A stretch of 64,000 bases of DNA from Alphaproteobacteria bacterium (lineage in GTDB: Bacteria; Pseudomonadota; Alphaproteobacteria; UBA11073): the NCBI GenBank assembly GCA_965246945.1, contig CBDFFW010000001.1, positions 1,064,311 through 1,128,310 on the forward strand, read 5' to 3'. Positions 6,344 to 45,910 of this stretch are shown in pieces. The position numbers were made by a program, and so were the translations under genes. Each line of letters opens with the position of its first letter. The stretch's first letter is position 1. The notes under the pieces were generated by a model. That model was not told the origin of the DNA, did not search any database, and was given only the letters and a program-made list of their open reading frames with translations.

Positions 6344-6447
6344 CCTCATCTTGAGGAGCGCCATTGGCGCGTATCGAAGGATGTTTAATGAAGCCATATC
6401 GTTTAAGCAGCCTTCGATACGCAGCAAAACTGCTACTCAGGATGAGG
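6344..6447. repeat. Family A nested palindromic element, copy A1
   Basis: The outer inverted repeat is CCTCATCYTGAGKAG ... CTACTCAGGATGAGG and the inner one is GTATCGAAGGATG ... CAGCCTTCGATAC. The same architecture recurs five more times in the window. Confidence 0.85.
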
Positions 6448-15295: not shown

Positions 15296-15410
15296 GAGTA
15301 GCGAGGCGAAGGCCGAGCGGATCGCAGATCCGGAATCTAGGAGTTAATATGTGCGAAGCTTTGCTTCGCGCTTTGTTTAGTCACTAGATCCCGACTTTCG
15401 TCGGGATGAC
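15282..15410. repeat. Family B palindromic element, copy B2
   Basis: The left arm is the long variant (GTCATTCCGGACAAGAG...GATCCGGAATC). The right arm is the short variant (CACTAGATCCCGACTTTCGTCGGGATGAC). It sits between cmk and rpsA. Confidence 0.85.
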
Positions 15411-20567: not shown

Positions 20568-20576
20568 TTGAATGGG

Positions 20577-20704
20577 TGATCCCGATAAAAATCGGGATCC
20601 AGTGATATAAATATGCGCGGTAGCGCTCAAGATAGTTTGTTTTGTGTCATGCTAATAAGCATGACGAGTTTGATCACTGGATTCCGGCTTTCGCCGGAAT
20701 GACG
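20577..20704. repeat. Family B palindromic element, copy B3
   Basis: GATCCCGATAAAAATCGGGATCCAGTG ... central GTCATGCTAATAAGCATGAC ... CACTGGATTCCGGCTTTCGCCGGAATGACG. Confidence 0.8.
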
Positions 20705-20707
20705 ATG

Positions 20708-21475
20708 CTACTTCAACCCAATCAAACTGATCTGGCGGCCATATTGCGTTTTTTTGTGGTGGGTGTTGTGGCGGTAGCTGAAATATTTATCGGGCTGGGT
20801 ATAAGTATCCGCTGCGCAATCATCAAACTGGATAATGCCCGCAGCAGTTAACTGTTGTTTAAGTATGGCGGGCACATCCAATAAATAGTGGTCAGCCCGC
20901 GTGGCCGGTTTAAACGCGGCCGCGTAGTTGGAATTTTTAGCGGTTGCTTGCGCATATACCTCCGCGCCAACTTCGTAACTGGCTTGGCGAATGCACGGGC
21001 CGATGGTTACGATAATATCGGCTAGTTGCGAACCGGCATATTCCATTGCTTGTAATGTCGCCGGCACAATGCCTGCGATCGCGCCGCGCCAACCGGCATG
21101 GGCGGCCCCCACAATTTCGGCGACCGGATCGGCAAACAGCACTGGCACGCAATCGGCGGTTAAGATACCCAATAATAATCCTGGGATACCGGTAATCATG
21201 GCATCCGCCTGTGGTGATTTGCCCATGCGCCAGGGTTCGGTCACCGGTATCACCTGATCGCCATGCACTTGGTGCAGCGTTAAAATATCTTTAGGGCTGC
21301 CGCCAAATTCAGCGGCGACCAAGGTCCGGTTTTCCCAAATATTTTCGGGGGCATCGCCAGATTTGCTGCCGCAATTTAAACTGGCAAAAATACCGGTGCT
21401 AACCCCGCCTTGGTTGCCGAAAAAACCATGTTGAATTCCCAGCTCCTCAGCTAAGCGTGGCGATTGAATAAACAT
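20708..21475 (-). CDS. pgeF: Peptidoglycan editing factor PgeF (YfiH/DUF152 family)
   Basis: TLHQVHGDQV, ADAMITG...LLGILTADCVPVLFAD and GAAHAGWRG are the signature motifs. Confidence 0.8.
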   Translation of the reverse strand: MFIQSPRLAEELGIQHGFFGNQGGVSTGIFASLNCGSKSGDAPENIWENRTLVAAEFGGSPKDILTLHQVHGDQVIPVTEPWRMGKSPQADAMITGIPGLLLGILTADCVPVLFADPVAEIVGAAHAGWRGAIAGIVPATLQAMEYAGSQLADIIVTIGPCIRQASYEVGAEVYAQATAKNSNYAAAFKPATRADHYLLDVPAILKQQLTAAGIIQFDDCAADTYTQPDKYFSYRHNTHHKKTQYGRQISLIGLK

Positions 21476-21491
21476 AATCGAATTTTAACAG

Positions 21492-22625
21492 CTATTTGCT
21501 GCATTCCGCAAGGCTTGGTGCGTGTAATTCTATGGCTTTAAATAAGGTGCCCATTTGGCTAGGCGCGGTTAGGCGTTGGTAACCATTTAATAATTCTAAA
21601 TTCGTTGGCATATCGGCCTTGGTTTGGAGCAATTTTAACCGTTCGGCGATGCCGAGCGCATGCAGCAAATCCGCTTGCGTGATAATTTTTGAAGGGCATA
21701 AATTTTGTGCAATGGCCCAAGTTTTTAAGGCGGCAAAGTTGACATGGCTGGTGAGATCGGCAGCGCCTGGATAAGCCAAAATATCGACCGGTTGATGATT
21801 TTTAACGGCTTGCAATGTGTTGCCAAAAGCATGTTCTGCAAAACCGTAATCAATGAACAAGGCGGCACCGCGTTGTTCTTTTAACTTGGCTGCCAATGGT
21901 GCCAAGGCTTGATGCCGTAAAGCGGAGGATTCGTAAATTGATGTAAACCCTCCCCTTGCGGGAGGGTCGATCCGTGTTAGCGGATCGGGGTGGGGTGGAA
22001 ACTTGTGATTTATTTTCCCCCACCCCGAAAACAGCTGCGCCGTTTTCGACCCTCCCGCCAGGGGAGGGTTAGCCTGTAAATGCAAAATACTATTTTTTTG
22101 CATAACATAAAGTTGCAGCCATTGCTGACCATCCCATTTATATTGTTCAACCGGCAGCGCATCCAAAAATTCATTGGCGAGCGTGATGCTGATGCCAGTT
22201 GGTATTGCCGCGATATTATCGGTCCATTGGGGCGATAAATGATAGGGGCTCCAAGCTTTTGCTTGCTGCCTGCGCAATTCTGGGCTGGTTTCGACGGCAA
22301 ATAGTTGGATACTTTCGCTTGGAATAAATTTTAAAATAACGCGCAAGGCATCAGCCATTAATGTGCCGCGGCCTGGGCCAAGCTCAATCAATTGCCATTG
22401 CGCAGGCTGACCTAAATTGTGCCATTGCTGTACGACCCAAATGCCGAGCATCTCACCGAATAGCTGGGAAATTTCTGGTGCAGTGATGAAATCACCTGTT
22501 TGGCCAATAACATTGCTTTGGGCATAATAATGCTGATTGCTCAGCGCCATATAGTGGCCGAAGGTTAATCGGCCATTATTATTGGCAAAGGCAGCGGCAA
22601 GCGGTTCAGGCAACAAGGGTAACAT
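21492..22625 (-). CDS. MidA/NDUFAF7-like class I SAM-dependent methyltransferase interrupted in-frame by a family C palindromic element
   Basis: FITAPEISQLFGEMLG and LIELGPGRGTLMADAL match the MidA family. A 41-42 aa low-complexity insert (…LAGGSKTAQLFSGWGKINHKFPPHPDPLTRIDPPARGGFTSI…) is encoded exactly by the palindromic element at 21946-22070. The start was set at an internal Met because the longest ORF overlaps lgt. Confidence 0.7.
   Translation of the reverse strand: MLPLLPEPLAAAFANNNGRLTFGHYMALSNQHYYAQSNVIGQTGDFITAPEISQLFGEMLGIWVVQQWHNLGQPAQWQLIELGPGRGTLMADALRVILKFIPSESIQLFAVETSPELRRQQAKAWSPYHLSPQWTDNIAAIPTGISITLANEFLDALPVEQYKWDGQQWLQLYVMQKNSILHLQANPPLAGGSKTAQLFSGWGKINHKFPPHPDPLTRIDPPARGGFTSIYESSALRHQALAPLAAKLKEQRGAALFIDYGFAEHAFGNTLQAVKNHQPVDILAYPGAADLTSHVNFAALKTWAIAQNLCPSKIITQADLLHALGIAERLKLLQTKADMPTNLELLNGYQRLTAPSQMGTLFKAIELHAPSLAECSK
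21946..22070. repeat. Family C palindromic element (three hairpins), in-frame inside a CDS
   Basis: AAACCCTCCCCTTGCGGGAGGGTCGA ... CGGGGTGGGG...CCCCACCCCG ... TCGACCCTCCCGCCAGGGGAGGGTT. It is about 125 bp and is more GC-rich than the surrounding gene. Confidence 0.8.
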
Positions 22626-23403
22626 GTTTACGGGGCCGCAAGATAAGCCATAAGCCAAATACAATCATGGGCGCTGATAGCAACTGGCCCATGGTGAGTG
22701 AGCCGAACATAAAACCGAGCTGTGCATCGGGTTCGCGGAATTGTTCCACGATAATACGGCATAGGGCATAGCCCACCAAAAATGCGCCGCCGATCATCCC
22801 TGGCTTGGCACGCATGCGTGGTTGGCGAATCATTAGCCATAGCACCGTAAATAAAACGAAACCTTCCAAACCCGTTTCATATAACTGGCTGGGATGGCGG
22901 GGCAAGGGACCACCATGCGGGAAGACCATGCCCCATGGCACATCCGTCACACGGCCAAACAACTCGCCATTAACAAAATTAGCCAAGCGGCCTAGCCCTA
23001 AACCGATTGGAGTGGCGGCCGCGAAATAATCCATCACGCTGAGAAAACGGATTTTTTGAAAATAGGTATATAAAGCGGCCGCGGTGATTACCCCCAGCAT
23101 CCCACCATGAAAAGACATGCCGCCTTGCCAGATATGCAAAATATCGGCCGGATGTTCCAGATACATCGGTAAATTATAAAACAGCACATAGCCTAAGCGG
23201 CCGCCCAAGATAGTCCCTAAAATCGCCCAGGTTACGGCATTTTGCAGATCGTCATAATTCGGGCGTTGCGGTGCAGGCGGCAGATACCTTTTGACGTAGG
23301 CAAGGCCAAGAATAAAACCGGCCACATAAGCCAGCGCATACCAGCGTATGGCCAGCGGGCCAATCTGTGCAGCGACAGGGTTGAATTCAGGTAAAATAAT
23401 CAC
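22606..23403 (-). CDS. lgt: Prolipoprotein diacylglyceryl transferase
   Basis: 265 aa polytopic membrane protein with the Lgt signature region (…YALAYVAGFILG…GGRLGYVLFYN…). Confidence 0.85.
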   Translation of the reverse strand: MIILPEFNPVAAQIGPLAIRWYALAYVAGFILGLAYVKRYLPPAPQRPNYDDLQNAVTWAILGTILGGRLGYVLFYNLPMYLEHPADILHIWQGGMSFHGGMLGVITAAALYTYFQKIRFLSVMDYFAAATPIGLGLGRLANFVNGELFGRVTDVPWGMVFPHGGPLPRHPSQLYETGLEGFVLFTVLWLMIRQPRMRAKPGMIGGAFLVGYALCRIIVEQFREPDAQLGFMFGSLTMGQLLSAPMIVFGLWLILRPRKHVTLVA

Positions 23404-25012: not shown

Positions 25013-25099
25013 GTCATCCCAGCGCAAGCTGGCATCCAAACGCAACTAACAAATTCATTGTCGGTGCTGGACTAGATCCCGGCTTGCGCTGGGATGACG
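25013..25099. repeat. Family B palindromic element, short variant B4
   Basis: GTCATCCCAGCGCAAGCTGG ... CTAGATCCCGGCTTGCGCTGGGATGACG. It sits between convergent mltG and pyrF. Confidence 0.75.
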
Positions 25100-25107
25100 C
25101 TAGCATT

Positions 25108-25815
25108 TTAAATGCTTGCCAAAATTGCTTTAACCGCTGTTGCAGGATCAGCTGCCTGGCTGATCGGGCGGCCAATGACGAGGTGGGTGGCACCGGCTTT
25201 GATGGCTTCAACGGGTGTGAGCGTGCGGGCTTGGTCGTCGCCTTTAACTGCAGTATCAGCGGGGCGGATGCCAGGGGTGATGAAGATGGCTTCAGTTCCG
25301 AATTGTTCGCGCAGGCGGGCGACATCGGTGGCCGCACAAACAATCCCGTCGCAGCCGTTATTAAGCGCTAGGCCAGCCAACCGCTTTACCTGTGCTGAAA
25401 CATCATCGCTTTGCCCCACATCCATTAAGTCATTGCTGGCGAGGGAAGTAAGCACGGTCACGCCGAGCAATTGCGGGCGGGCGATGCCTAAGCGCGTGGC
25501 TTCGCTTGCCACGGCTTGGCGGGCGGCTTGCAGCATGGCCGCGCCGCCGCTGGCATGCAGTGTGATAAAATTGGGTTGCAGGGGCACCAAGGCTTTCAAT
25601 GCTTGGGCGACCGTATTGGGAATATCGTGTAACTTCAAATCCAGGAACAGGATCGAACCGGCTGGCCGCACCGCTTGAATACCGGCGGGGCCATGGGCGC
25701 AGAAGAATTCAAGGCCGAGTTTTAAAGTGCCGGTATGCGGTGTGGCGGCGGCGATTAGCTTTTCAGCTACTGTGCGGTCCGCCGTATCAATCGCACAAAA
25801 AATTAGGTTTTTCAT
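25108..25815 (-). CDS. pyrF: Orotidine 5'-phosphate decarboxylase
   Basis: LIFCAIDT, LKLGLEFF, FLDLKLHDIPNTV and GVTVLTSL motifs. The start is at the internal Met (MKNLIF...). The longer ORF would run through repeat A2. Confidence 0.85.
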   Translation of the reverse strand: MKNLIFCAIDTADRTVAEKLIAAATPHTGTLKLGLEFFCAHGPAGIQAVRPAGSILFLDLKLHDIPNTVAQALKALVPLQPNFITLHASGGAAMLQAARQAVASEATRLGIARPQLLGVTVLTSLASNDLMDVGQSDDVSAQVKRLAGLALNNGCDGIVCAATDVARLREQFGTEAIFITPGIRPADTAVKGDDQARTLTPVEAIKAGATHLVIGRPISQAADPATAVKAILASI

Positions 25816-25827
25816 CGCTCCCTCATA

Positions 25828-25934
25828 CCTCATCCTGAGTAGCCATGCAAAGTATGGCGTATCGAAGGATGCTTGACCAGAGTATAGCGTTGGAGCATCC
25901 CTCAATACGCGCTTTGCGCTACTCAGGATGAGGT
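25828..25934. repeat. Family A nested palindromic element, copy A2
   Basis: ACCTCATCCTGAGTAG...GTATCGAAGGATGC...GCATCCCTCAATAC...CTACTCAGGATGAGGT. Confidence 0.85.
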
Positions 25935-26717: not shown

Positions 26718-26823
26718 CCTCGTCCTGAGTAGGGCATCGCCCGTATCGAAGGATGCTCCAGCTATATACCTTGGTTAAGCATCCTTCGATACAAACGTTA
26801 AGGCGTTCTAATCAGAATGAGGT
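26718..26823. repeat. Family A nested palindromic element, copy A3 (right outer arm degenerate)
   Basis: CCTCGTCCTGAGTAG...GTATCGAAGGATGC...GCATCCTTCGATAC...CTAATCAGAATGAGG. Confidence 0.8.
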
Positions 26824-34592: not shown

Positions 34593-34703
34593 CCTCATCC
34601 TGAGGAGCCAAGCATCGCTTGGTGTCTCGAAGGATGCTCTAGTGGAATTGCCAGCTTAAGCATCCTTCGAGACGCAGCTTATTAGCTGCTCCTCAGGATG
34701 AGG
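34593..34703. repeat. Family A nested palindromic element, copy A4
   Basis: CCTCATCCTGAGGAG...GTCTCGAAGGATGC...GCATCCTTCGAGAC...CTCCTCAGGATGAGG. Both arms carry compensatory changes, so the pairing is preserved. Confidence 0.85.
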
Positions 34704-35293: not shown

Positions 35294-35418
35294 GTCATCC
35301 CGACGAAAGTCGGGATCTAGTGGTATAATCTGCGCGAAGCGCTCAAAATTATTATTTTGCATTACGCTAAAGCATAATACTTTTTAATCACTGGATTCCG
35401 ACTTTCGTTGGGATGACG
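35294..35418. repeat. Family B palindromic element, copy B5
   Basis: GTCATCCCGACGAAAGTCGGGATCTAGTG ... CACTGGATTCCGACTTTCGTTGGGATGACG. Confidence 0.85.
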
Positions 35419-36256: not shown

Positions 36257-36346
36257 CCTCGTCCTGAGTATTGAAGGATGCTTAACTGGGGTATATCGCT
36301 GGAGCATCCTTCGATACGAACGCGCTGCGTTCTACTCAGGATGAGG
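36257..36346. repeat. Family A nested palindromic element, copy A5 (left inner arm shortened)
   Basis: CCTCGTCCTGAGTA-TTGAAGGATGC...GCATCCTTCGATAC...CTACTCAGGATGAGG. Confidence 0.8.
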
Positions 36347-37115: not shown

Positions 37116-37122
37116 TACTGAC

Positions 37123-37225
37123 CTCTTCCTGAGTAGCGCTGCAAGCGCGTATCGAAGGATGCCTATGGTTCCACCCTCATTAAGCATCCTTCGATACAAA
37201 TGCTGCGCGTTTTACTCAGGATGAG
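37123..37225. repeat. Family A nested palindromic element, copy A6
   Basis: CCTCTTCCTGAGTAG...GTATCGAAGGATGC...GCATCCTTCGATAC...TTACTCAGGATGAG. Confidence 0.85.
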
Positions 37226-37247
37226 ATTTGTTTAAGGTATAAAAATT

Positions 37248-39497: not shown

Positions 39498-40313
39498 ATG
39501 AAAAAGACCGCCCTTATCACCGGCAGTGCCAAACGAATTGGTGCGGTAATTGCGCAGCATTTGGCGGCCGCTGGTTATGATATTGTTATTCATTATCACC
39601 GCAGTGTTGTTGAAGCTAAGCAGTTGGCAGACCAATTAACCACACAATATCGGGTTAAAGCTTCAACAGTTGCCGCTGACCTAGCCAATTTGGTGCAAGT
39701 TGAAAATTTATGGCAGCAGATAATTGCGCAAGCAGGCCAAATTGATTTGCTGATAAATAATGCGGCCTGGTTCGATCCTGCCAATGATCCAGTTGAACAT
39801 AGCGATCCGCAAATTACTAAAACAGTCTGGCAAATTAATACGCATACACCGCAGCGTTTAAGTGAATTATTTGCCGCGCAAAACGGTTTAACAAATGGCC
39901 ATATCATTAATATTTTGGATTATCGGGTCTTGAAACCCAGTGGGAGCTTTCCAATTTATACCGCTAGCAAAACTGCTTTATGGCAAGTTACTCAGCAGCT
40001 TGCATTGGATTACGCGCCAACTGTTCGCGTAAATGCGTTGGCATTAGGCATGGCGATGCGGGCCAATGACCAAACGCAAGAACATTTTGAAAAGCATATT
40101 ATGGCAGCACCTTTGCAACGCAGCGGCGATGCGGATGAAATTGCCTGTGCTGTTTTAGCGTTAGAAAATCTATCGAGTGTGACCGGACAAATTTTGGCTT
40201 TGGACGGCGGTATGCATTTAACCAACGTCATCCCGACGAAAGTCGGGATCCAGTGGCCAACAGTACAATGCGAAGCTTTGTTCAAAAAATTAATTTTATT
40301 TGCATCACGCTAA
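39498..40313 (+). CDS. SDR-family oxidoreductase (pteridine/monapterin reductase-like); the last ~30 codons come from repeat B6
   Basis: TGSAKRIGAVIA cofactor motif and catalytic Y..K in ...YTASKTAL.... The SDR fold ends near ...ALDGGMHL. The remaining tail (…TNVIPTKVGIQWPTVQCEALFKKLILFASR) is encoded by the repeat. Confidence 0.7.
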   Translation: MKKTALITGSAKRIGAVIAQHLAAAGYDIVIHYHRSVVEAKQLADQLTTQYRVKASTVAADLANLVQVENLWQQIIAQAGQIDLLINNAAWFDPANDPVEHSDPQITKTVWQINTHTPQRLSELFAAQNGLTNGHIINILDYRVLKPSGSFPIYTASKTALWQVTQQLALDYAPTVRVNALALGMAMRANDQTQEHFEKHIMAAPLQRSGDADEIACAVLALENLSSVTGQILALDGGMHLTNVIPTKVGIQWPTVQCEALFKKLILFASR

Positions 40314-40360
40314 AGCGTGACAATTATAATCACTGGATCCCGACTTTCGTCGGGATGACG
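40227..40360. repeat. Family B palindromic element, copy B6, overlapping the 3' ends of two convergent CDS
   Basis: GTCATCCCGACGAAAGTCGGGATCCAGTG ... CACTGGATCCCGACTTTCGTCGGGATGACG. Read on either strand the arm encodes VIPTKVGIQ. Confidence 0.85.
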
Positions 40361-41079
40361 AGGCCTAAAACATCCTGCATATCGTATTGACCAGGCGGTT
40401 TATTTAAAACCCAGCTGGCGGCATGCACTGCGCCGCGCGCAAAAATGGCGCGGTCCGTGGCGCGGTGGGTTAGCTCTAGCCGCTCTTGCTGGCCGAAGAA
40501 AAAGGCTGTGTGTTCACCGGCAACGTCACCGCCGCGGGCGACACTGAAGCCGATATGGCCAGTTGCGCGCACACCAGTATGGCCATCACGAGCCGCAACT
40601 TTATTTGTTGCTAAATCTATATTCCGGCCCTTCGCAGCAGCCTGACCGAGCATTAATGCCGTACCACTTGGCGCATCAACTTTTTGATTGTGGTGTGTTT
40701 CAAAAATTTCAATATCGAATAATTCGGGCGGCAAGGTTTGCGCAGCGCGTTCGATCAGCCAGTTGAGTACATTCACGCCCAAGGAATAATTGGCGGCATA
40801 AACCACGGCTTGATTTTGCGCATAGTTTTTGATCAGCAGTTCCTGATCTGGGGATAATCCCGTGGTGCCAATCACCAGGCGGGGCTTGGTCGATTGTTGG
40901 GCAGCCCAATTTAATAAGGCTGCCGTTGCTTCCGGCGTGCTGAAATCAATGATTACAGCGCTGCCGGCCAACGCCGCCAAATCATCACCGCGGTCGACAG
41001 CTTTGAATAAATGATTGCCTGCCAGCTGAACCAATTGCTGGCCCATACGCCCCTTGGCACCGTGAATACTGATTTTCAT
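40330..41079 (-). CDS. dapB: 4-hydroxy-tetrahydrodipicolinate reductase
   Basis: MKISIHGAKGRMGQ NAD(P) motif and the DapB catalytic region (…FETHHNQKVDAPSGTAL…). The last 9 codons (VIPTKVGIQ) come from repeat B6. Confidence 0.85.
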   Translation of the reverse strand: MKISIHGAKGRMGQQLVQLAGNHLFKAVDRGDDLAALAGSAVIIDFSTPEATAALLNWAAQQSTKPRLVIGTTGLSPDQELLIKNYAQNQAVVYAANYSLGVNVLNWLIERAAQTLPPELFDIEIFETHHNQKVDAPSGTALMLGQAAAKGRNIDLATNKVAARDGHTGVRATGHIGFSVARGGDVAGEHTAFFFGQQERLELTHRATDRAIFARGAVHAASWVLNKPPGQYDMQDVLGLVIPTKVGIQ

Positions 41080-43233: not shown

Positions 43234-43242
43234 TTAGCGCCG

Positions 43243-43372
43243 TCATTCCGACGAAAGTCGGAATCCAGTGGTTGATAAGTGCAATGCATCGCATTGCTCA
43301 AACAATAATTATTTTGTGTCATGCTGCGCATGACGAGTCTGGGTCACTGGATCCCGATTTGCATCGGGATGA
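43243..43372. repeat. Family B palindromic element, copy B7
   Basis: GTCATTCCGACGAAAGTCGGAATCCAGTG ... central GTCATGCTGCGCATGAC ... CACTGGATCCCGATTTGCATCGGGATGACG. Confidence 0.85.
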
Positions 43373-45739
43373 CGATTCTGTTTCAATCAAATGTGCTAGG
43401 AAATCAGCAGGACGTTTGTTGGAATCTTGCGCCATCCATTGGTGATAGATAACGGTGGATGGCGTGAGACCTGGCAAAGTATTGGCTTCGATCAGCAGCG
43501 CTTGATCGGTTTTGATGTTAAAGAAAATATCGAGACGGGCGTAGTTTTGGATGCCGAGTGTCGCAGCCGCCTTTTCGATTTTGCTTTCAATTATTGTCCG
43601 TTGCGCGGCGCTGATGATACTGACCGGCGGCGGCGTTAAATTCACGCCTGTCCCACCTTGGAATTTTTCTTCCAAGCTTAAGACCGCATTGGCCGCCACC
43701 GTGATACTTGGCGGCAGGGATTGATATATACCGTTTTGCTCCAGAACACCAACGGTCAATTCAATCCAGCCAGTGTGGGCTTCATGTTTTAATTCTGTAC
43801 CGACAATTTGCAGGTGATCGGTTTCAATGTAAGGTTCTAAAATATACTTACTGCTGTGTGCGCTGGCGAGTTCGACAATTTCTGGTTGTTCGGCAAAACT
43901 ATGCGGCGGAAAAAAGCTGGCACCTGCACGCAGGAATTTGCCGTAAATGGCAAGTTGGACAGCATCGCTGAGTTTAATCACGCCAGCCGAACAGCCTTCA
44001 TCTTGTGGTTTTAGGATCAATTTTTGGGACTGCCAATTGGTGGTTAATTCCTGCCACAAGTCAACCCAATCGGTGCTGGCATTTTCCAGATCCGCTTGGC
44101 TTAGATGATGTTTGGGGCAGGCAGTTAACTGTTTATCGCGCAGGGCATCAATCGCAGCGCCGGTTGCGAGTTTATCCATGCATAATGCCGAAGCCGCTGA
44201 ACCCGAACCGTTATAATGCAGACCGCGCCCATCAAGCTCTGCCTGCAACCGGCCATCTTCACCCATGCCGCCATGCAAGCCTAAAAAGACAAAGGCATTT
44301 TGTGCTGCCGCTTTCTGTAAGAAGTTTTCTAATGATAAAGATTGCGGTTCGGCTAATGCGGCTTGCTGTTCGATTTCACTATAGCCAAGCGCCGGTAAAA
44401 TTTGTGGTAGATACGGCTTCAAACTGGCCGTGATACTGGCGCTATCGGCACAGCTGTGCATAATTTCTTCAACCGTGTGTTGCAGGGCATAAGCATAGGG
44501 CAATTGCCAGATGGTTTGCGCATCGGTGCCAAGTAGAAATAGCTGCGGTGAACAATTTGCCGTCTGTTGCAATTTCAGCCAAACATTGGTCCCGCTCATC
44601 AATGAAACTTGCCGCTCGGCCGTGCTGCCGCCACAAATTACGGCGACCAGCTCTGTGCCATTACGCGGTTGGGCCGGCGGTAAGACAACGCCATGCCGCT
44701 GGGCCGCACTGTTTAGAACATGGCGTAAAACCTGGCGGTGGGTGAGGCCGATGCGGGCGGCTTGTTGGAATAAAAAGCTGTTCTGTTCCATTCCGCTAAT
44801 CGGGTTTAAATCAGAAAATAAAACGGTGCCGTCTTTTAACCACCAGCCATCCAAGCGCGCAAAATCCTGCATGCCGAATAATTTAAAAATCTGCGCTGCC
44901 TGCTGGCGGATGGTGTTAATCACATTGGTAGGAAAACGCGGCGGGCAGAAATAAGCGGCTTGGTTGGTGGGTAGATATTTGCGGCGAAAATCGAAGATTT
45001 GATTGTCTTGGTAACTAACTGCGATTTCGCTGGGTAGCAATGCAACGGGTTCGCCGTCTGTGCCGGTTAGCACAACAATAGTAAATTCCTGGCCATCACA
45101 AAATGGTTCAATCATCACACGGCTATCATGCGTCTGGGCGAGCAGTTTATCGGCCGCAGCAGTGGCGGCTTCAGCGCTAGCCACCGAATGCACGCCAATG
45201 CTGCTGCCACCGGCCACGGGTTTAACGACAGCGCGCTGCAAATTATGTGTGCGCCAAAAAACGGGAATGGCCGTGCTTTCTTCCGCTTGGCTGACGGTGA
45301 GACTGGGCAGCGTGGCCAGGCCATTGGCCCGCAATATACTGGCCGCAACATCTTTGAAAAACATTTGGCGGCAGGCGGCGGCTGGGCTGGCAACATATGG
45401 AATATCATGCTGCTCTAAAAAATTCTGGAGCTGACCATCTTCGCCGTAAGCGCCATGAATGGCGGGGAAAACCAGATGGCAAGCTTGCAGTGCTTCAACC
45501 ACCTGTTTTTCATTCAAAACCTGTGCGGTTTCGGCGAGTTTGAAATCGAAATCAGAAGGCGTGTTTGAATAAAGTTGGGTGGTGGAAAGCCGATAAAATT
45601 TCAGTTTCTCATCCACATAAAATGGCACAATTTCGATATTGCTATCGGCGATATGATCAAGCAGGGAACGAGCAGAATTAAGGGAAATACCCCGCTCGGC
45701 CGATGGCCCGCCACAAATCACTGCAAGTTGAAATGACAT
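43319..45739 (-). CDS. Tandem fusion of two D-alanine--D-alanine ligase-like ATP-grasp modules (806 aa)
   Basis: Two N-terminal Ddl-type motifs (LAVICGGPSAERGISLNSA and VAVICGGSTAERQVSLMSG), each followed by an ATP-grasp region. The last ~17 codons (…ESSSRCKSGSSDPDSSCAA) lie inside repeat B7. Confidence 0.65.
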   Translation of the reverse strand: MSFQLAVICGGPSAERGISLNSARSLLDHIADSNIEIVPFYVDEKLKFYRLSTTQLYSNTPSDFDFKLAETAQVLNEKQVVEALQACHLVFPAIHGAYGEDGQLQNFLEQHDIPYVASPAAACRQMFFKDVAASILRANGLATLPSLTVSQAEESTAIPVFWRTHNLQRAVVKPVAGGSSIGVHSVASAEAATAAADKLLAQTHDSRVMIEPFCDGQEFTIVVLTGTDGEPVALLPSEIAVSYQDNQIFDFRRKYLPTNQAAYFCPPRFPTNVINTIRQQAAQIFKLFGMQDFARLDGWWLKDGTVLFSDLNPISGMEQNSFLFQQAARIGLTHRQVLRHVLNSAAQRHGVVLPPAQPRNGTELVAVICGGSTAERQVSLMSGTNVWLKLQQTANCSPQLFLLGTDAQTIWQLPYAYALQHTVEEIMHSCADSASITASLKPYLPQILPALGYSEIEQQAALAEPQSLSLENFLQKAAAQNAFVFLGLHGGMGEDGRLQAELDGRGLHYNGSGSAASALCMDKLATGAAIDALRDKQLTACPKHHLSQADLENASTDWVDLWQELTTNWQSQKLILKPQDEGCSAGVIKLSDAVQLAIYGKFLRAGASFFPPHSFAEQPEIVELASAHSSKYILEPYIETDHLQIVGTELKHEAHTGWIELTVGVLEQNGIYQSLPPSITVAANAVLSLEEKFQGGTGVNLTPPPVSIISAAQRTIIESKIEKAAATLGIQNYARLDIFFNIKTDQALLIEANTLPGLTPSTVIYHQWMAQDSNKRPADFLAHLIETESSSRCKSGSSDPDSSCAA

Positions 45740-45783: not shown

Positions 45784-45910
45784 GTCATCCCGACGGAAGT
45801 CGGGATCTAGTGATAAATTAATGAATCATGCTGGCATGATACAAAATTATTCTTTTTTGAGCGCTACGCGCAGTTTTAGTCACTGGATCCCGACTTTCGT
45901 CGGGATGACG
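45784..45910. repeat. Family B palindromic element, copy B8
   Basis: GTCATCCCGACGGAAGTCGGGATCTAGTG ... central ATCATGCTGGCATGAT ... CACTGGATCCCGACTTTCGTCGGGATGACG. Confidence 0.85.

Follow-up and report, generated by a model that had tools for sequence, protein, structure and literature searches.

The 64-kb stretch of alphaproteobacterial DNA analysed here (the window, 47% GC) carries on its minus strand an lgt-midA-pgeF operon whose central gene codes for a MidA/NDUFAF7-type methyltransferase. The element under study is a GC-rich palindrome of 125 bp found within midA at positions 21946-22070. It belongs to a family of five-hairpin nested-palindrome repeats that is named family C in this report. 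The operon genes, the element and its hairpins H1-H5 are the following (positions are those of the window; ORF, open reading frame; TIR, terminal inverted repeat):

22606-23403, minus strand: lgt, prolipoprotein diacylglyceryl transferase, upstream operon partner; its 20-nt overlap with midA is found in orthologous loci too
21492-22625, minus strand: midA, intact coding sequence of an NDUFAF7-type class I S-adenosylmethionine methyltransferase (377 residues plus stop; PF02636), host of the element
20708-21475, minus strand: Cu-oxidase_4 (PgeF/YfiH-type) gene, downstream operon partner
21945-22070, minus strand: 42 codons of the element read through as N186-F227 of the 377-residue product; predicted disordered loop rich in Pro and Gly
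21946-22070, no strand: complete family-C nested palindrome of 125 bp without an ORF of its own; same architecture as in at least 57 full copies elsewhere
21948-21966, no strand: H1, terminal hairpin CCCTCCCcttgcGGGAGGG, kept across the family alignment
21969-21986, no strand: H2, arm hairpin GATCCGtgttagCGGATC; the sequence differs among copies, pairing is retained
21987-22026, no strand: H3, central hairpin made of GGGGTGGGG, a 22-nt AT-rich loop and CCCCACCCC
22027-22047, no strand: H4, arm hairpin GAAAACagctgcgccGTTTTC of the 'long-loop' arm type; the loop resembles the family motif GCGCAGC
22050-22068, no strand: H5, terminal hairpin CCCTCCCgccagGGGAGGG, TIR partner of H1

Anatomy of the element and of its host gene

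The element (AACCCTCCCCTTGCGGGAGGGTCGATCCGTGTTAGCGGATCGGGGTGGGGTGGAAACTTGTGATTTATTTTCCCCCACCCCGAAAACAGCTGCGCCGTTTTCGACCCTCCCGCCAGGGGAGGGTT) has a GC content of 61%, compared to 47% for the window. It folds with -49.8 kcal/mol as DNA (z -10.0 relative to shuffles) and with -89.6 kcal/mol as sense-strand RNA (z -12.4), and 36 of its 36 stem pairs are perfect. Its GC-rich palindromic character and its length, recognized initially from the sequence, were thus confirmed, but the three hairpins then described are five. The motif CCCTCCC-N5-GGGAGGG occurs twice in the 64 kb, at 21948-21966 and 22050-22068, and gave 0 matches in 100 shuffles. H1 and H5 with their flanks form TIRs that agree at 24 of 25 nt (AACCCTCCCCTkGCGGGAGGGTCGA), and the element can therefore fold also as one long hairpin. 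Such TIRs, the length of 125 bp and the lack of an own ORF correspond to the description of MITEs, the miniature inverted-repeat transposable elements. The central hairpin is a compensated variant of the arms GGGGAGGGG/CCCCTCCCC that are usual in the family. Note that the window element is bordered by gtaAA...TTagc, while copies in other genomes have flanks of the form xA...Tx that are often complementary, with A frequent at the left end and T at the right. Since they are often complementary, these flanks may be a continuation of the inverted repeat and not a duplicated TA.

The host ORF spans 21492-22664 on the minus strand; the recorded protein (P0001, 377 residues, 100% identical) has its ATG at 22625. 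Matches of the ORF are to Pfam PF02636 Methyltransf_28 over model positions 1-240 of 249 (E 3e-54), PDB 1zkd with residues 30-372 aligned (E 3e-50) and PDB 5ztz (E 9e-46). The 42 element codons are read through without a stop as the peptide NPPLAGGSKTAQLFSGWGKINHKFPPHPDPLTRIDPPARGGF (N186-F227), in agreement with the original prediction of an insert that neither shifts nor closes the frame. Because the element sits in an open frame and its length preserves the frame downstream, the gene still encodes a complete methyltransferase, which is presumed to be made and active.

The same locus could be read as a decaying pseudogene, or as a gene inactivated by the insert whose frame is open by luck. 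Three of the six reading frames of the element are open, so that an open frame is not very improbable, and the very stable structure could impede translation. However, no stop, frameshift or other lesion is found in midA, its matches to Pfam and 1zkd are full-length, and the window protein has all the residues of the 41 invariant and 41 near-invariant columns of a 120-sequence family alignment. The 20-nt overlap with lgt and the lgt-midA-pgeF order are conserved in orthologous loci, the structural model is confident outside the insert, and those orthologues that bear inserts in this loop likewise have intact genes (see below). Loss of the gene is, in view of this, very improbable.

The alignment of 120 MidA sequences includes 117 from outside the clade of the window, a clade formed in the databases searched by only three genomes: the window, L001 (protein P0003) and L002. 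The insert is absent from 117 of the 120 homologues and its columns are mostly occupied in 0-2 other sequences, which establishes the lineage specificity that had been proposed for it. The column span W169-E232 holds 62 residues in the window versus a median of 39 (range 23-70) in the 117 homologues from outside the clade. Typical members have ~24 residues from the conserved Pro (P187) to the Glu of the GxIxE motif. As these native residues are missing in the window, the alignment indicates that the 42 element codons replace ~19 residues of the native loop and are not a pure insertion. The insert of 41-42 residues reported initially is hence present as 42 codons, but the net gain over typical homologues is ~23 residues. 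The likeness of DPLTRIDPP to the native PPLARLSPP of 1zkd was discarded as a coincidence of low-complexity sequence, given that each module of the DNA has its counterpart in the element family.

The variation of the family loop between 23 and 70 residues could also accommodate a native, lineage-specific expansion of the loop in place of a mobile element, and an assembly artefact might produce a similar picture. Against this, the five-module architecture with conserved H1, H3 and H5 is common to dozens of unrelated loci elsewhere, and a part of the element occupies the same position in L001, which was assembled independently. Both versions of this explanation are effectively refuted.

The AlphaFold2 model built from the 120-sequence alignment has a predicted local distance difference test (pLDDT) of 89 and a predicted template modelling score (pTM) of 0.89. 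Foldseek aligns it to the MidA structures 5zu0/5ztz (template modelling score, TM, 0.81) and to 1zkd (0.77). The pLDDT falls below 50 only at residues 200-218 and 224-226, inside a low block (~190-229) that corresponds to the insert and is flanked by strands 180-185 and 230-233. This suggests that the insert is a disordered loop on an intact fold. The tolerated surface loop of the original prediction is sustained in so far as the insert coincides with the only low-confidence stretch of a confident model, while exposure at the surface is not proven by pLDDT.

Three MidA homologues with the longest loops were inspected for palindromes. P0011 (40% identical; L207, 2050-2193) has in the same loop an in-frame three-hairpin H1-H3-H5 element (CCCTCTCCCCttcgGGGAGAGGG - GGGGTGAGGGGGG...CCCCCTCACCC - CCCTCTCCCCggagGGGAGAGGG; z -12.4), and P0047 (L209, 2044-2211) has there an unrelated long palindrome, also in frame (z -7.0). 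The two genes are intact, belong to distant MidA lineages and lie within an lgt-midA-Cu_oxidase_4 operon as in the window. Counting the window and P0003, at least three different elements appear, from these sequences, to have settled in one MidA loop. Such recurrence is what a filter for tolerated positions predicts, and the presence of other palindromic elements in this loop in unrelated lineages points to tolerance of insertions as the reason why the window copy persists.

Family C and its DUF559 cassettes

Relatives of the element were searched in one genome per species with the pattern TCGACCCTCCC-N5-GGGAGGG. The scan yielded at least 120 loci, nearly all from Alphaproteobacteria (e.g. Rhizomicrobium, Micropepsaceae, Parvibaculum, Bauldia and metagenome-assembled genomes, MAGs, labelled Rickettsiales). 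At least 57 full copies from other genomes, 84-176 bp long and composed of the same five modules, are found among the matches listed; the window element is thus a dispersed repeat and not a chance palindrome. The family is present in genomes of 31-65% GC, in which the GC-rich stems are kept, while the loops become AT-rich in MAGs of 31-33% GC, as in the five-hairpin element L053 896-1026 of a Rickettsiales-labelled MAG. Other genomes are multi-copy, with up to three elements in 8 kb (L054). Long ORFs spanning elements in GC-rich genomes were rejected as in-frame insertions, being arginine-rich artefacts or genuine genes whose start lies immediately behind the element.

Common to the 26 parsable copies is the plan CCCTCCCCttgaGGGAGGG - TC - GAAA[stem-loop]TTTC - GGGGAGGGG[loop]CCCCTCCCC - GAAA[stem-loop]TTTC - GA - CCCTCCCtcaaGGGGAGGG, which the window copy fits module by module. 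Among the 52 arm hairpins (H2/H4 type) of a census, 50 different sequences were counted; the perfect stem averages 7.1 bp and z averages -4. The H3 arm also varies within the family (GGGGAGGGG, GGGAAGGGG, GGGGTGAGGG, GGGAGAGGGG) and its variants are compensated, as in GGGGAGGGG/CCCCTCCCC, GGGAAGGGG/CCCCTTCCC and the GGGGTGGGG/CCCCACCCC of the window. MAFFT was unable to align the variable arm hairpins structurally, and pair counting on conserved columns was used together with the direct hairpin census. In an alignment of 19 copies 98.8% of the structure cells pair and the covariation score is 0.087, whereas shuffles give 0.022 and slid partners no more than 0.033. The compensatory changes lie in H2, H4 and H3, which are the only informative modules because the aligned copies were chosen for intact H1 and H5. 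Rfam has nothing above its gathering score at the element or at seven related loci, where sub-threshold hits are to miRNA-like hairpins. A full-text search of the literature with the hairpin sequences gave no relevant match, and a protein-database search with the concatenated translations of the three open frames no scorable match.

Relatives of ~430-510 bp carry a gene for a DUF559 nuclease exactly in the loop of the central hairpin. The layout at L044, L076, L101 and L004 is H1 - H2 - GGGGAGGGG - (1-8 nt) - start...stop - CCCCTCCCC - H4 - H5, in which a Shine-Dalgarno-like GGAGG of the 5' arm precedes the start codon by 1-8 nt and the stop codon directly adjoins the 3' arm. The cassette of L021 is rearranged: it has the 5' arm, lacks its own H3 3' arm and H4, and its ORF enters the terminal hairpin of the neighbour. 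In L039 (1579-2300), from a MAG of 31-33% GC whose label Rickettsia typhi is doubtful, a DUF559 ORF lies between two direct full copies with GC-rich stems and AT-rich loops, and a single long ORF traverses all three. Another alphaproteobacterium has a DUF559 cassette with CCCTCTCCC-type hairpins between lgt and midA (L126, 2540-3030), the ORF being placed between the H3 arms. Its frame stays open from the nuclease across the hairpins as far as MidA, so that the product P0005, a MidA homologue found by an independent route, is called as a DUF559-MidA fusion with a predicted length of 493 residues.

Eight DUF559 matches were obtained by tblastn in the pattern-derived loci (908 kb), seven of which lie within 153 bp of a terminal hairpin. 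The bias of the pattern is removed in a protein-first sample, for which 62 DUF559 genes with sufficient flanking sequence were taken from metagenome contigs. The two flanks share an exact inverted repeat of 13 nt or more in 21 of these genes (34%) versus 0/62 in a mismatched-locus control (maximum 12 nt). The repeats comprise CCCTCCC...GGGAGGG terminal hairpins and GGGG[A/T]GGGG-type central arms (the GGGGAGGGG type). L169 and L127 are exact family-C cassettes, and L164, L156 and L139 are three-hairpin versions. The cassette nucleases conserve the catalytic D...E-x-D...H residues and match the NCBIfam entry 'DUF559 domain-containing protein' below its cutoff. Their profile has similarity to PDB 3hrl (E 2e-37) and to the homing endonuclease I-Bth0305I (3r3p, E 2e-4), which features a Vsr-like domain (PMC3239194; PMC3424549). 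None of the 25 searchable publications in which DUF559 is mentioned appears, by title or abstract, to treat palindromic cassettes, and the link appears to be undescribed.

This organization designates the DUF559 protein, a Vsr-like PD-(D/E)XK nuclease, as the most likely source of mobility for the element, whose 125-bp form would probably be a miniature derivative of the cassette or its (empty) target. A broader proposal, which is tentative and somewhat more doubtful than probable, is that a class of selfish cassettes not yet described is widespread in Alphaproteobacteria. Its members would have a DUF559 gene of ~110-130 codons in the central-hairpin loop, and the copies without ORF would be miniatures mobilized in trans or homing targets. 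If true, DUF559, a very common domain of unknown function, would become the engine of a repeat system that is homing-like or similar to REPtrons, in which a REP-associated tyrosine transposase (RAYT) gene is flanked by its repetitive extragenic palindromic sequences (REPs), and the repeated invasion of the same midA site could be accounted for. Should the nuclease act on the hairpins, one explanation would cover both a large orphan family of proteins and a large class of repeats in Alphaproteobacteria.

History of the midA site and reading of the insert

The three MidA proteins of the clade have identities of 0.64 (window-L001), 0.69 (window-L002) and 0.62 (L001-L002), and the corresponding third-codon-position identities are 0.48, 0.46 and 0.40. 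L001 has a partial family-C copy in the same frame as in the window and with the same junctions, AAC CCT CC... on the left and GGGAGGGTT plus three codons followed by TAC GAA on the right. The right terminal module TCGACCCTCCCGCAAGGGGAGGGTT is identical at 25 of 25 positions in the two copies, for which the chance is ~3e-5 at the divergence of the flanking gene. H4, in contrast, differs completely (window GATCCGCtaacaCGGATC, L001 GAAAGTCGCgttGCGCCTTTC), as does the H3 arm (window CCCCACCCC, L001 CCCTCCC). In the L001 copy H2 and the H3 5' arm are lacking and H1 has degenerated to AACCCTCCTCTTAAAGAGATA, while H4-H5 are pristine; the 10-nt direct repeat CTAACCCTCC is present twice. L002 (10001-11065), the closest MidA orthologue (69% identity), has an 11-residue deletion at the position of the left junction of the window element. 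Its loop is rearranged, without the second strand of the beta-hairpin that precedes it and with ~15 unrelated extra residues. A decayed copy of the element in L002 was considered and rejected (local alignment P = 0.97; fold z -0.65).

Simple vertical decay does not explain a pristine module beside a decayed one, or arms that differ and yet pair. Since the L001 copy combines the same junctions and the 25/25 terminal hairpin with a different interior, the sequences point to a history of reinvasion, of gene conversion from other copies, or of selection or constraint on the hairpins. It is fairly probable that the site did not receive one single recent hit, and that either an ancient insertion was patched by gene conversion and lost in L002 or the same site was invaded recurrently, as a hotspot or by homing into an older remnant. 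The identity of junctions and frame between copies with completely different interiors (H4 and the H3 arm), the contrast between H1 and H4-H5 in L001 and its 10-nt direct repeat support such a history. There is a precedent in recB, where different REPs are found at about the same site in two Xanthomonas species (Di Nocera et al. 2013, PMC3733652). On the other side, most family copies lie at unrelated intergenic sites, so that no strict target specificity is apparent, and the databases searched hold only three genomes of the clade from which an order of events could be read.

Constraint on the hairpins raises the question of exaptation, in which the mRNA or DNA structure within the lgt-midA-pgeF operon, or the peptide, would be maintained by selection. 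The insert could serve for processing by RNase III/E, for a pause in translation, as a roadblock to transcription by which midA and pgeF expression is tuned, or as a new interaction loop of MidA. The five perfect stems, the stability of the sense RNA (-89.6 kcal/mol, z -12.4) and the compensated A:T to T:A change in H3 would suit such roles, and MITEs are known to create RNase III/E sites (PMC10969869). The identity of the right terminal hairpin (25/25) between the window and L001, in spite of 64% protein and 48% third-position identity, is equally explained by recent reinvasion or gene conversion. Moreover, L002, although closest by identity, is devoid of any trace of the element, in the copy of L001 H2 and one half of H3 are gone and H1 is decayed, and the 117 homologues outside the clade function without the insert. 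Exaptation is therefore considered unlikely.

The preferred reading, to which a probability of about 0.8 is assigned, is that 21946-22070 is a complete ORF-less copy of a mobile nested palindrome of Alphaproteobacteria that resides in a tolerated loop of MidA, with the DUF559 nuclease as the most likely source of mobility. It builds on the observed anatomy, family membership and lineage specificity of the element, on a gene that is intact and on an insert that coincides with the one part of the model without structure; the way in which the element moved is reconstructed as follows. The element would have entered a MidA loop of variable length between two beta-strands, in one of its three open frames and with a length that keeps the downstream frame. 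A full methyltransferase would still be encoded, with 42 Pro/Gly-rich and probably disordered residues in place of ~19 native ones, and the copy would persist through the tolerance of the loop to insertions. The nuclease of the ~430-510 bp relatives would supply mobility, the 125-bp form being a miniature or an empty target.

Several points weigh against this reading. The 64-kb window has a single family-C copy and no DUF559 gene. None of the 57 full copies from other genomes is convincingly inside a real gene, so that in-frame survival is rare for family C. No target-site duplication or closely related empty site is definable from the flanks of the window copy and of the others. The stems are perfect despite a site shared with L001 at 48% third-position identity, and an old insert that is merely tolerated should have decayed. 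Instead of mobilizing the element, the DUF559 gene could have invaded it or be carried by it as cargo, and the low pLDDT of the insert suggests disorder without being proof of surface exposure.

Relation to known systems and other repeats of the window

Rickettsia palindromic elements (RPEs), the model invoked by the original prediction, are summarized in two later publications (PMC10969869, PMC3733652) as palindromic repeats present in frame in Rickettsia genes, RPE-1 to RPE-10 (Ogata et al. 2000, 2002). The RPE-like reading of the midA insert, i.e. selfish DNA that survives within a gene, is supported by the lineage specificity, the intact gene, the predicted disordered loop and the dispersed family. 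The two systems have in common a palindrome of ~100-150 bp, its in-frame position in a conserved housekeeping gene, an extra peptide compatible with the fold and an alphaproteobacterial host with a small genome (here a 1.79-Mb contig). Family C differs from RPEs by its host, which is very unlikely to be Rickettsia (47% GC), by the lack of the CGTC tag of RPE-4 and RPE-6, by in-gene copies that look rare (0/57) and by longer relatives bearing DUF559, which are not reported for RPEs; the distinction is drawn from the published descriptions of RPEs. The behaviour is less exotic than was first implied, since in-frame palindromic inserts are already documented outside Rickettsia (PMC3733652, PMC10969869).

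Intragenic insertions of REPs and REP dimers with GTAG and CGTC tags are described in several phyla (Di Nocera et al. 2013, PMC3733652). Like REPs and REPINs, family C is built from short stem-loops of high GC content, in inverted dimers or groups able to fold into larger hairpins, and is mostly intergenic with occasional in-frame copies, REPs adding 20-82 residues to real proteins. Unlike the tagged REPs, its H1 and H5 are flanked by AA/TCGA without a GTAG or CGTC tag, and it is a unit of five modules in fixed order. No RAYT gene was seen beside the elements, where DUF559 genes are found instead, in the loci examined, for which no Pfam scan of every ORF was made.

The MITEs known to fuse in frame with genes (Correia/NEMIS, intragenic ERIC, Coxiella QMITE1; PMC10969869, PMC5896051) share with the window element TIRs (here 24/25 nt), a length of ~125 bp, the absence of an ORF and the occasional formation of translational fusions, and with family C in other genomes a dispersed multi-copy distribution. 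They differ in that for family C no target-site duplication is shown, the internal hairpins are conserved in structure and not in sequence, and the longer partner codes for a PD-(D/E)XK DUF559 nuclease and not for a recognized transposase. REPtrons and free-standing or intron-borne homing endonuclease genes resemble the cassettes in having a small nuclease gene within the repeats or site on which it is thought to act. In I-Bth0305I it is the Vsr-like domain that the DUF559 profile matches (3r3p, E 2e-4; PMC3239194), and the two H3 arms form a split pseudo-palindrome like those recognized by dimeric nucleases. The DUF559 nuclease fold differs, however, from that of RAYT, an HUH Y1 enzyme. No intron or intein is involved, the activity of the nuclease is a predicted one, and the window copy has no nuclease gene.

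Few routes are open to bacteria for the gain of new peptide segments in conserved enzymes, and the survival of palindromic selfish DNA in frame is one of them. The phenomenon is known, while the DUF559-in-hairpin cassette and the recurrent colonization of one MidA loop go beyond what was found described. The midA case is a clean example outside Rickettsia, with a solved host fold and natural controls with and without the insert; these and the repeated colonization of the loop make the filtering by tolerated loops directly testable.

The host is very unlikely to be a Rickettsia in view of its 47% GC and of its SdhA, for which the named matches of ~80% identity are from the Rhodospirillales-type genera Oleisolibacter, Azospirillum and Rhodospirillum and the closer ones (84-86%) from Alphaproteobacteria MAGs. 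Neither family C nor the two further repeat families of the window, A and B, is present in the sdhA loci L123, L124 and L125 (~14-22 kb) of the relatives with 84-86% SdhA identity. The repeat load of the window seems, from these loci, to be a recent feature of its lineage.

Family A consists of nested palindromes of ~125-133 bp packed tightly between genes, and family B of elements of ~90-111 bp with a five-part nested layout (fold z -8.7 to -10.9). Their copies in the window are:

20576-20703, 25013-25098, 35294-35417, 40227-40359, 43242-43373 and 45784-45909: family A; half copy at 15382-15410
6344-6447, 25828-25933, 26718-26822, 34593-34703, 36257-36346 and 37122-37226: family B

The terminal hairpins of family A (CGTC-AT-CCCGAC-GAAA-GTCGGG-AT-CCA) fit head-to-head dimers of CGTC-1 REPs (PMC3733652). 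The plan of family B is an outer CCTCATCCTGAGTAG, a variable hairpin, the central GTATCGAAGGATGC...GCATCCTTCGATAC, a second variable hairpin and the outer motif again. Family-A elements overlap the 3' ends of genes: 39498-40313 (plus strand) with element A4 (40227-40359), 43319-45739 (minus strand) with A5, and 40330-41079 (minus strand). The first is an SDR-family ORF of 271 residues whose Pfam domain extends to residue 240, and the last ~28 residues and the stop codon come from A4; the dapB-like and Ddl-like ORFs likewise terminate inside family-A elements. The longest ORF of OMP decarboxylase (25108-25905, minus strand) begins inside element B2 (25828-25933) and its Pfam domain starts at residue 35; the true start of the protein is probably downstream of B2. 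The 806-residue ORF at 43319-45739 (minus strand) has two complete D-Ala-D-Ala ligase modules, the N- and C-terminal Pfam domains being matched twice, and looks like a tandem fusion.

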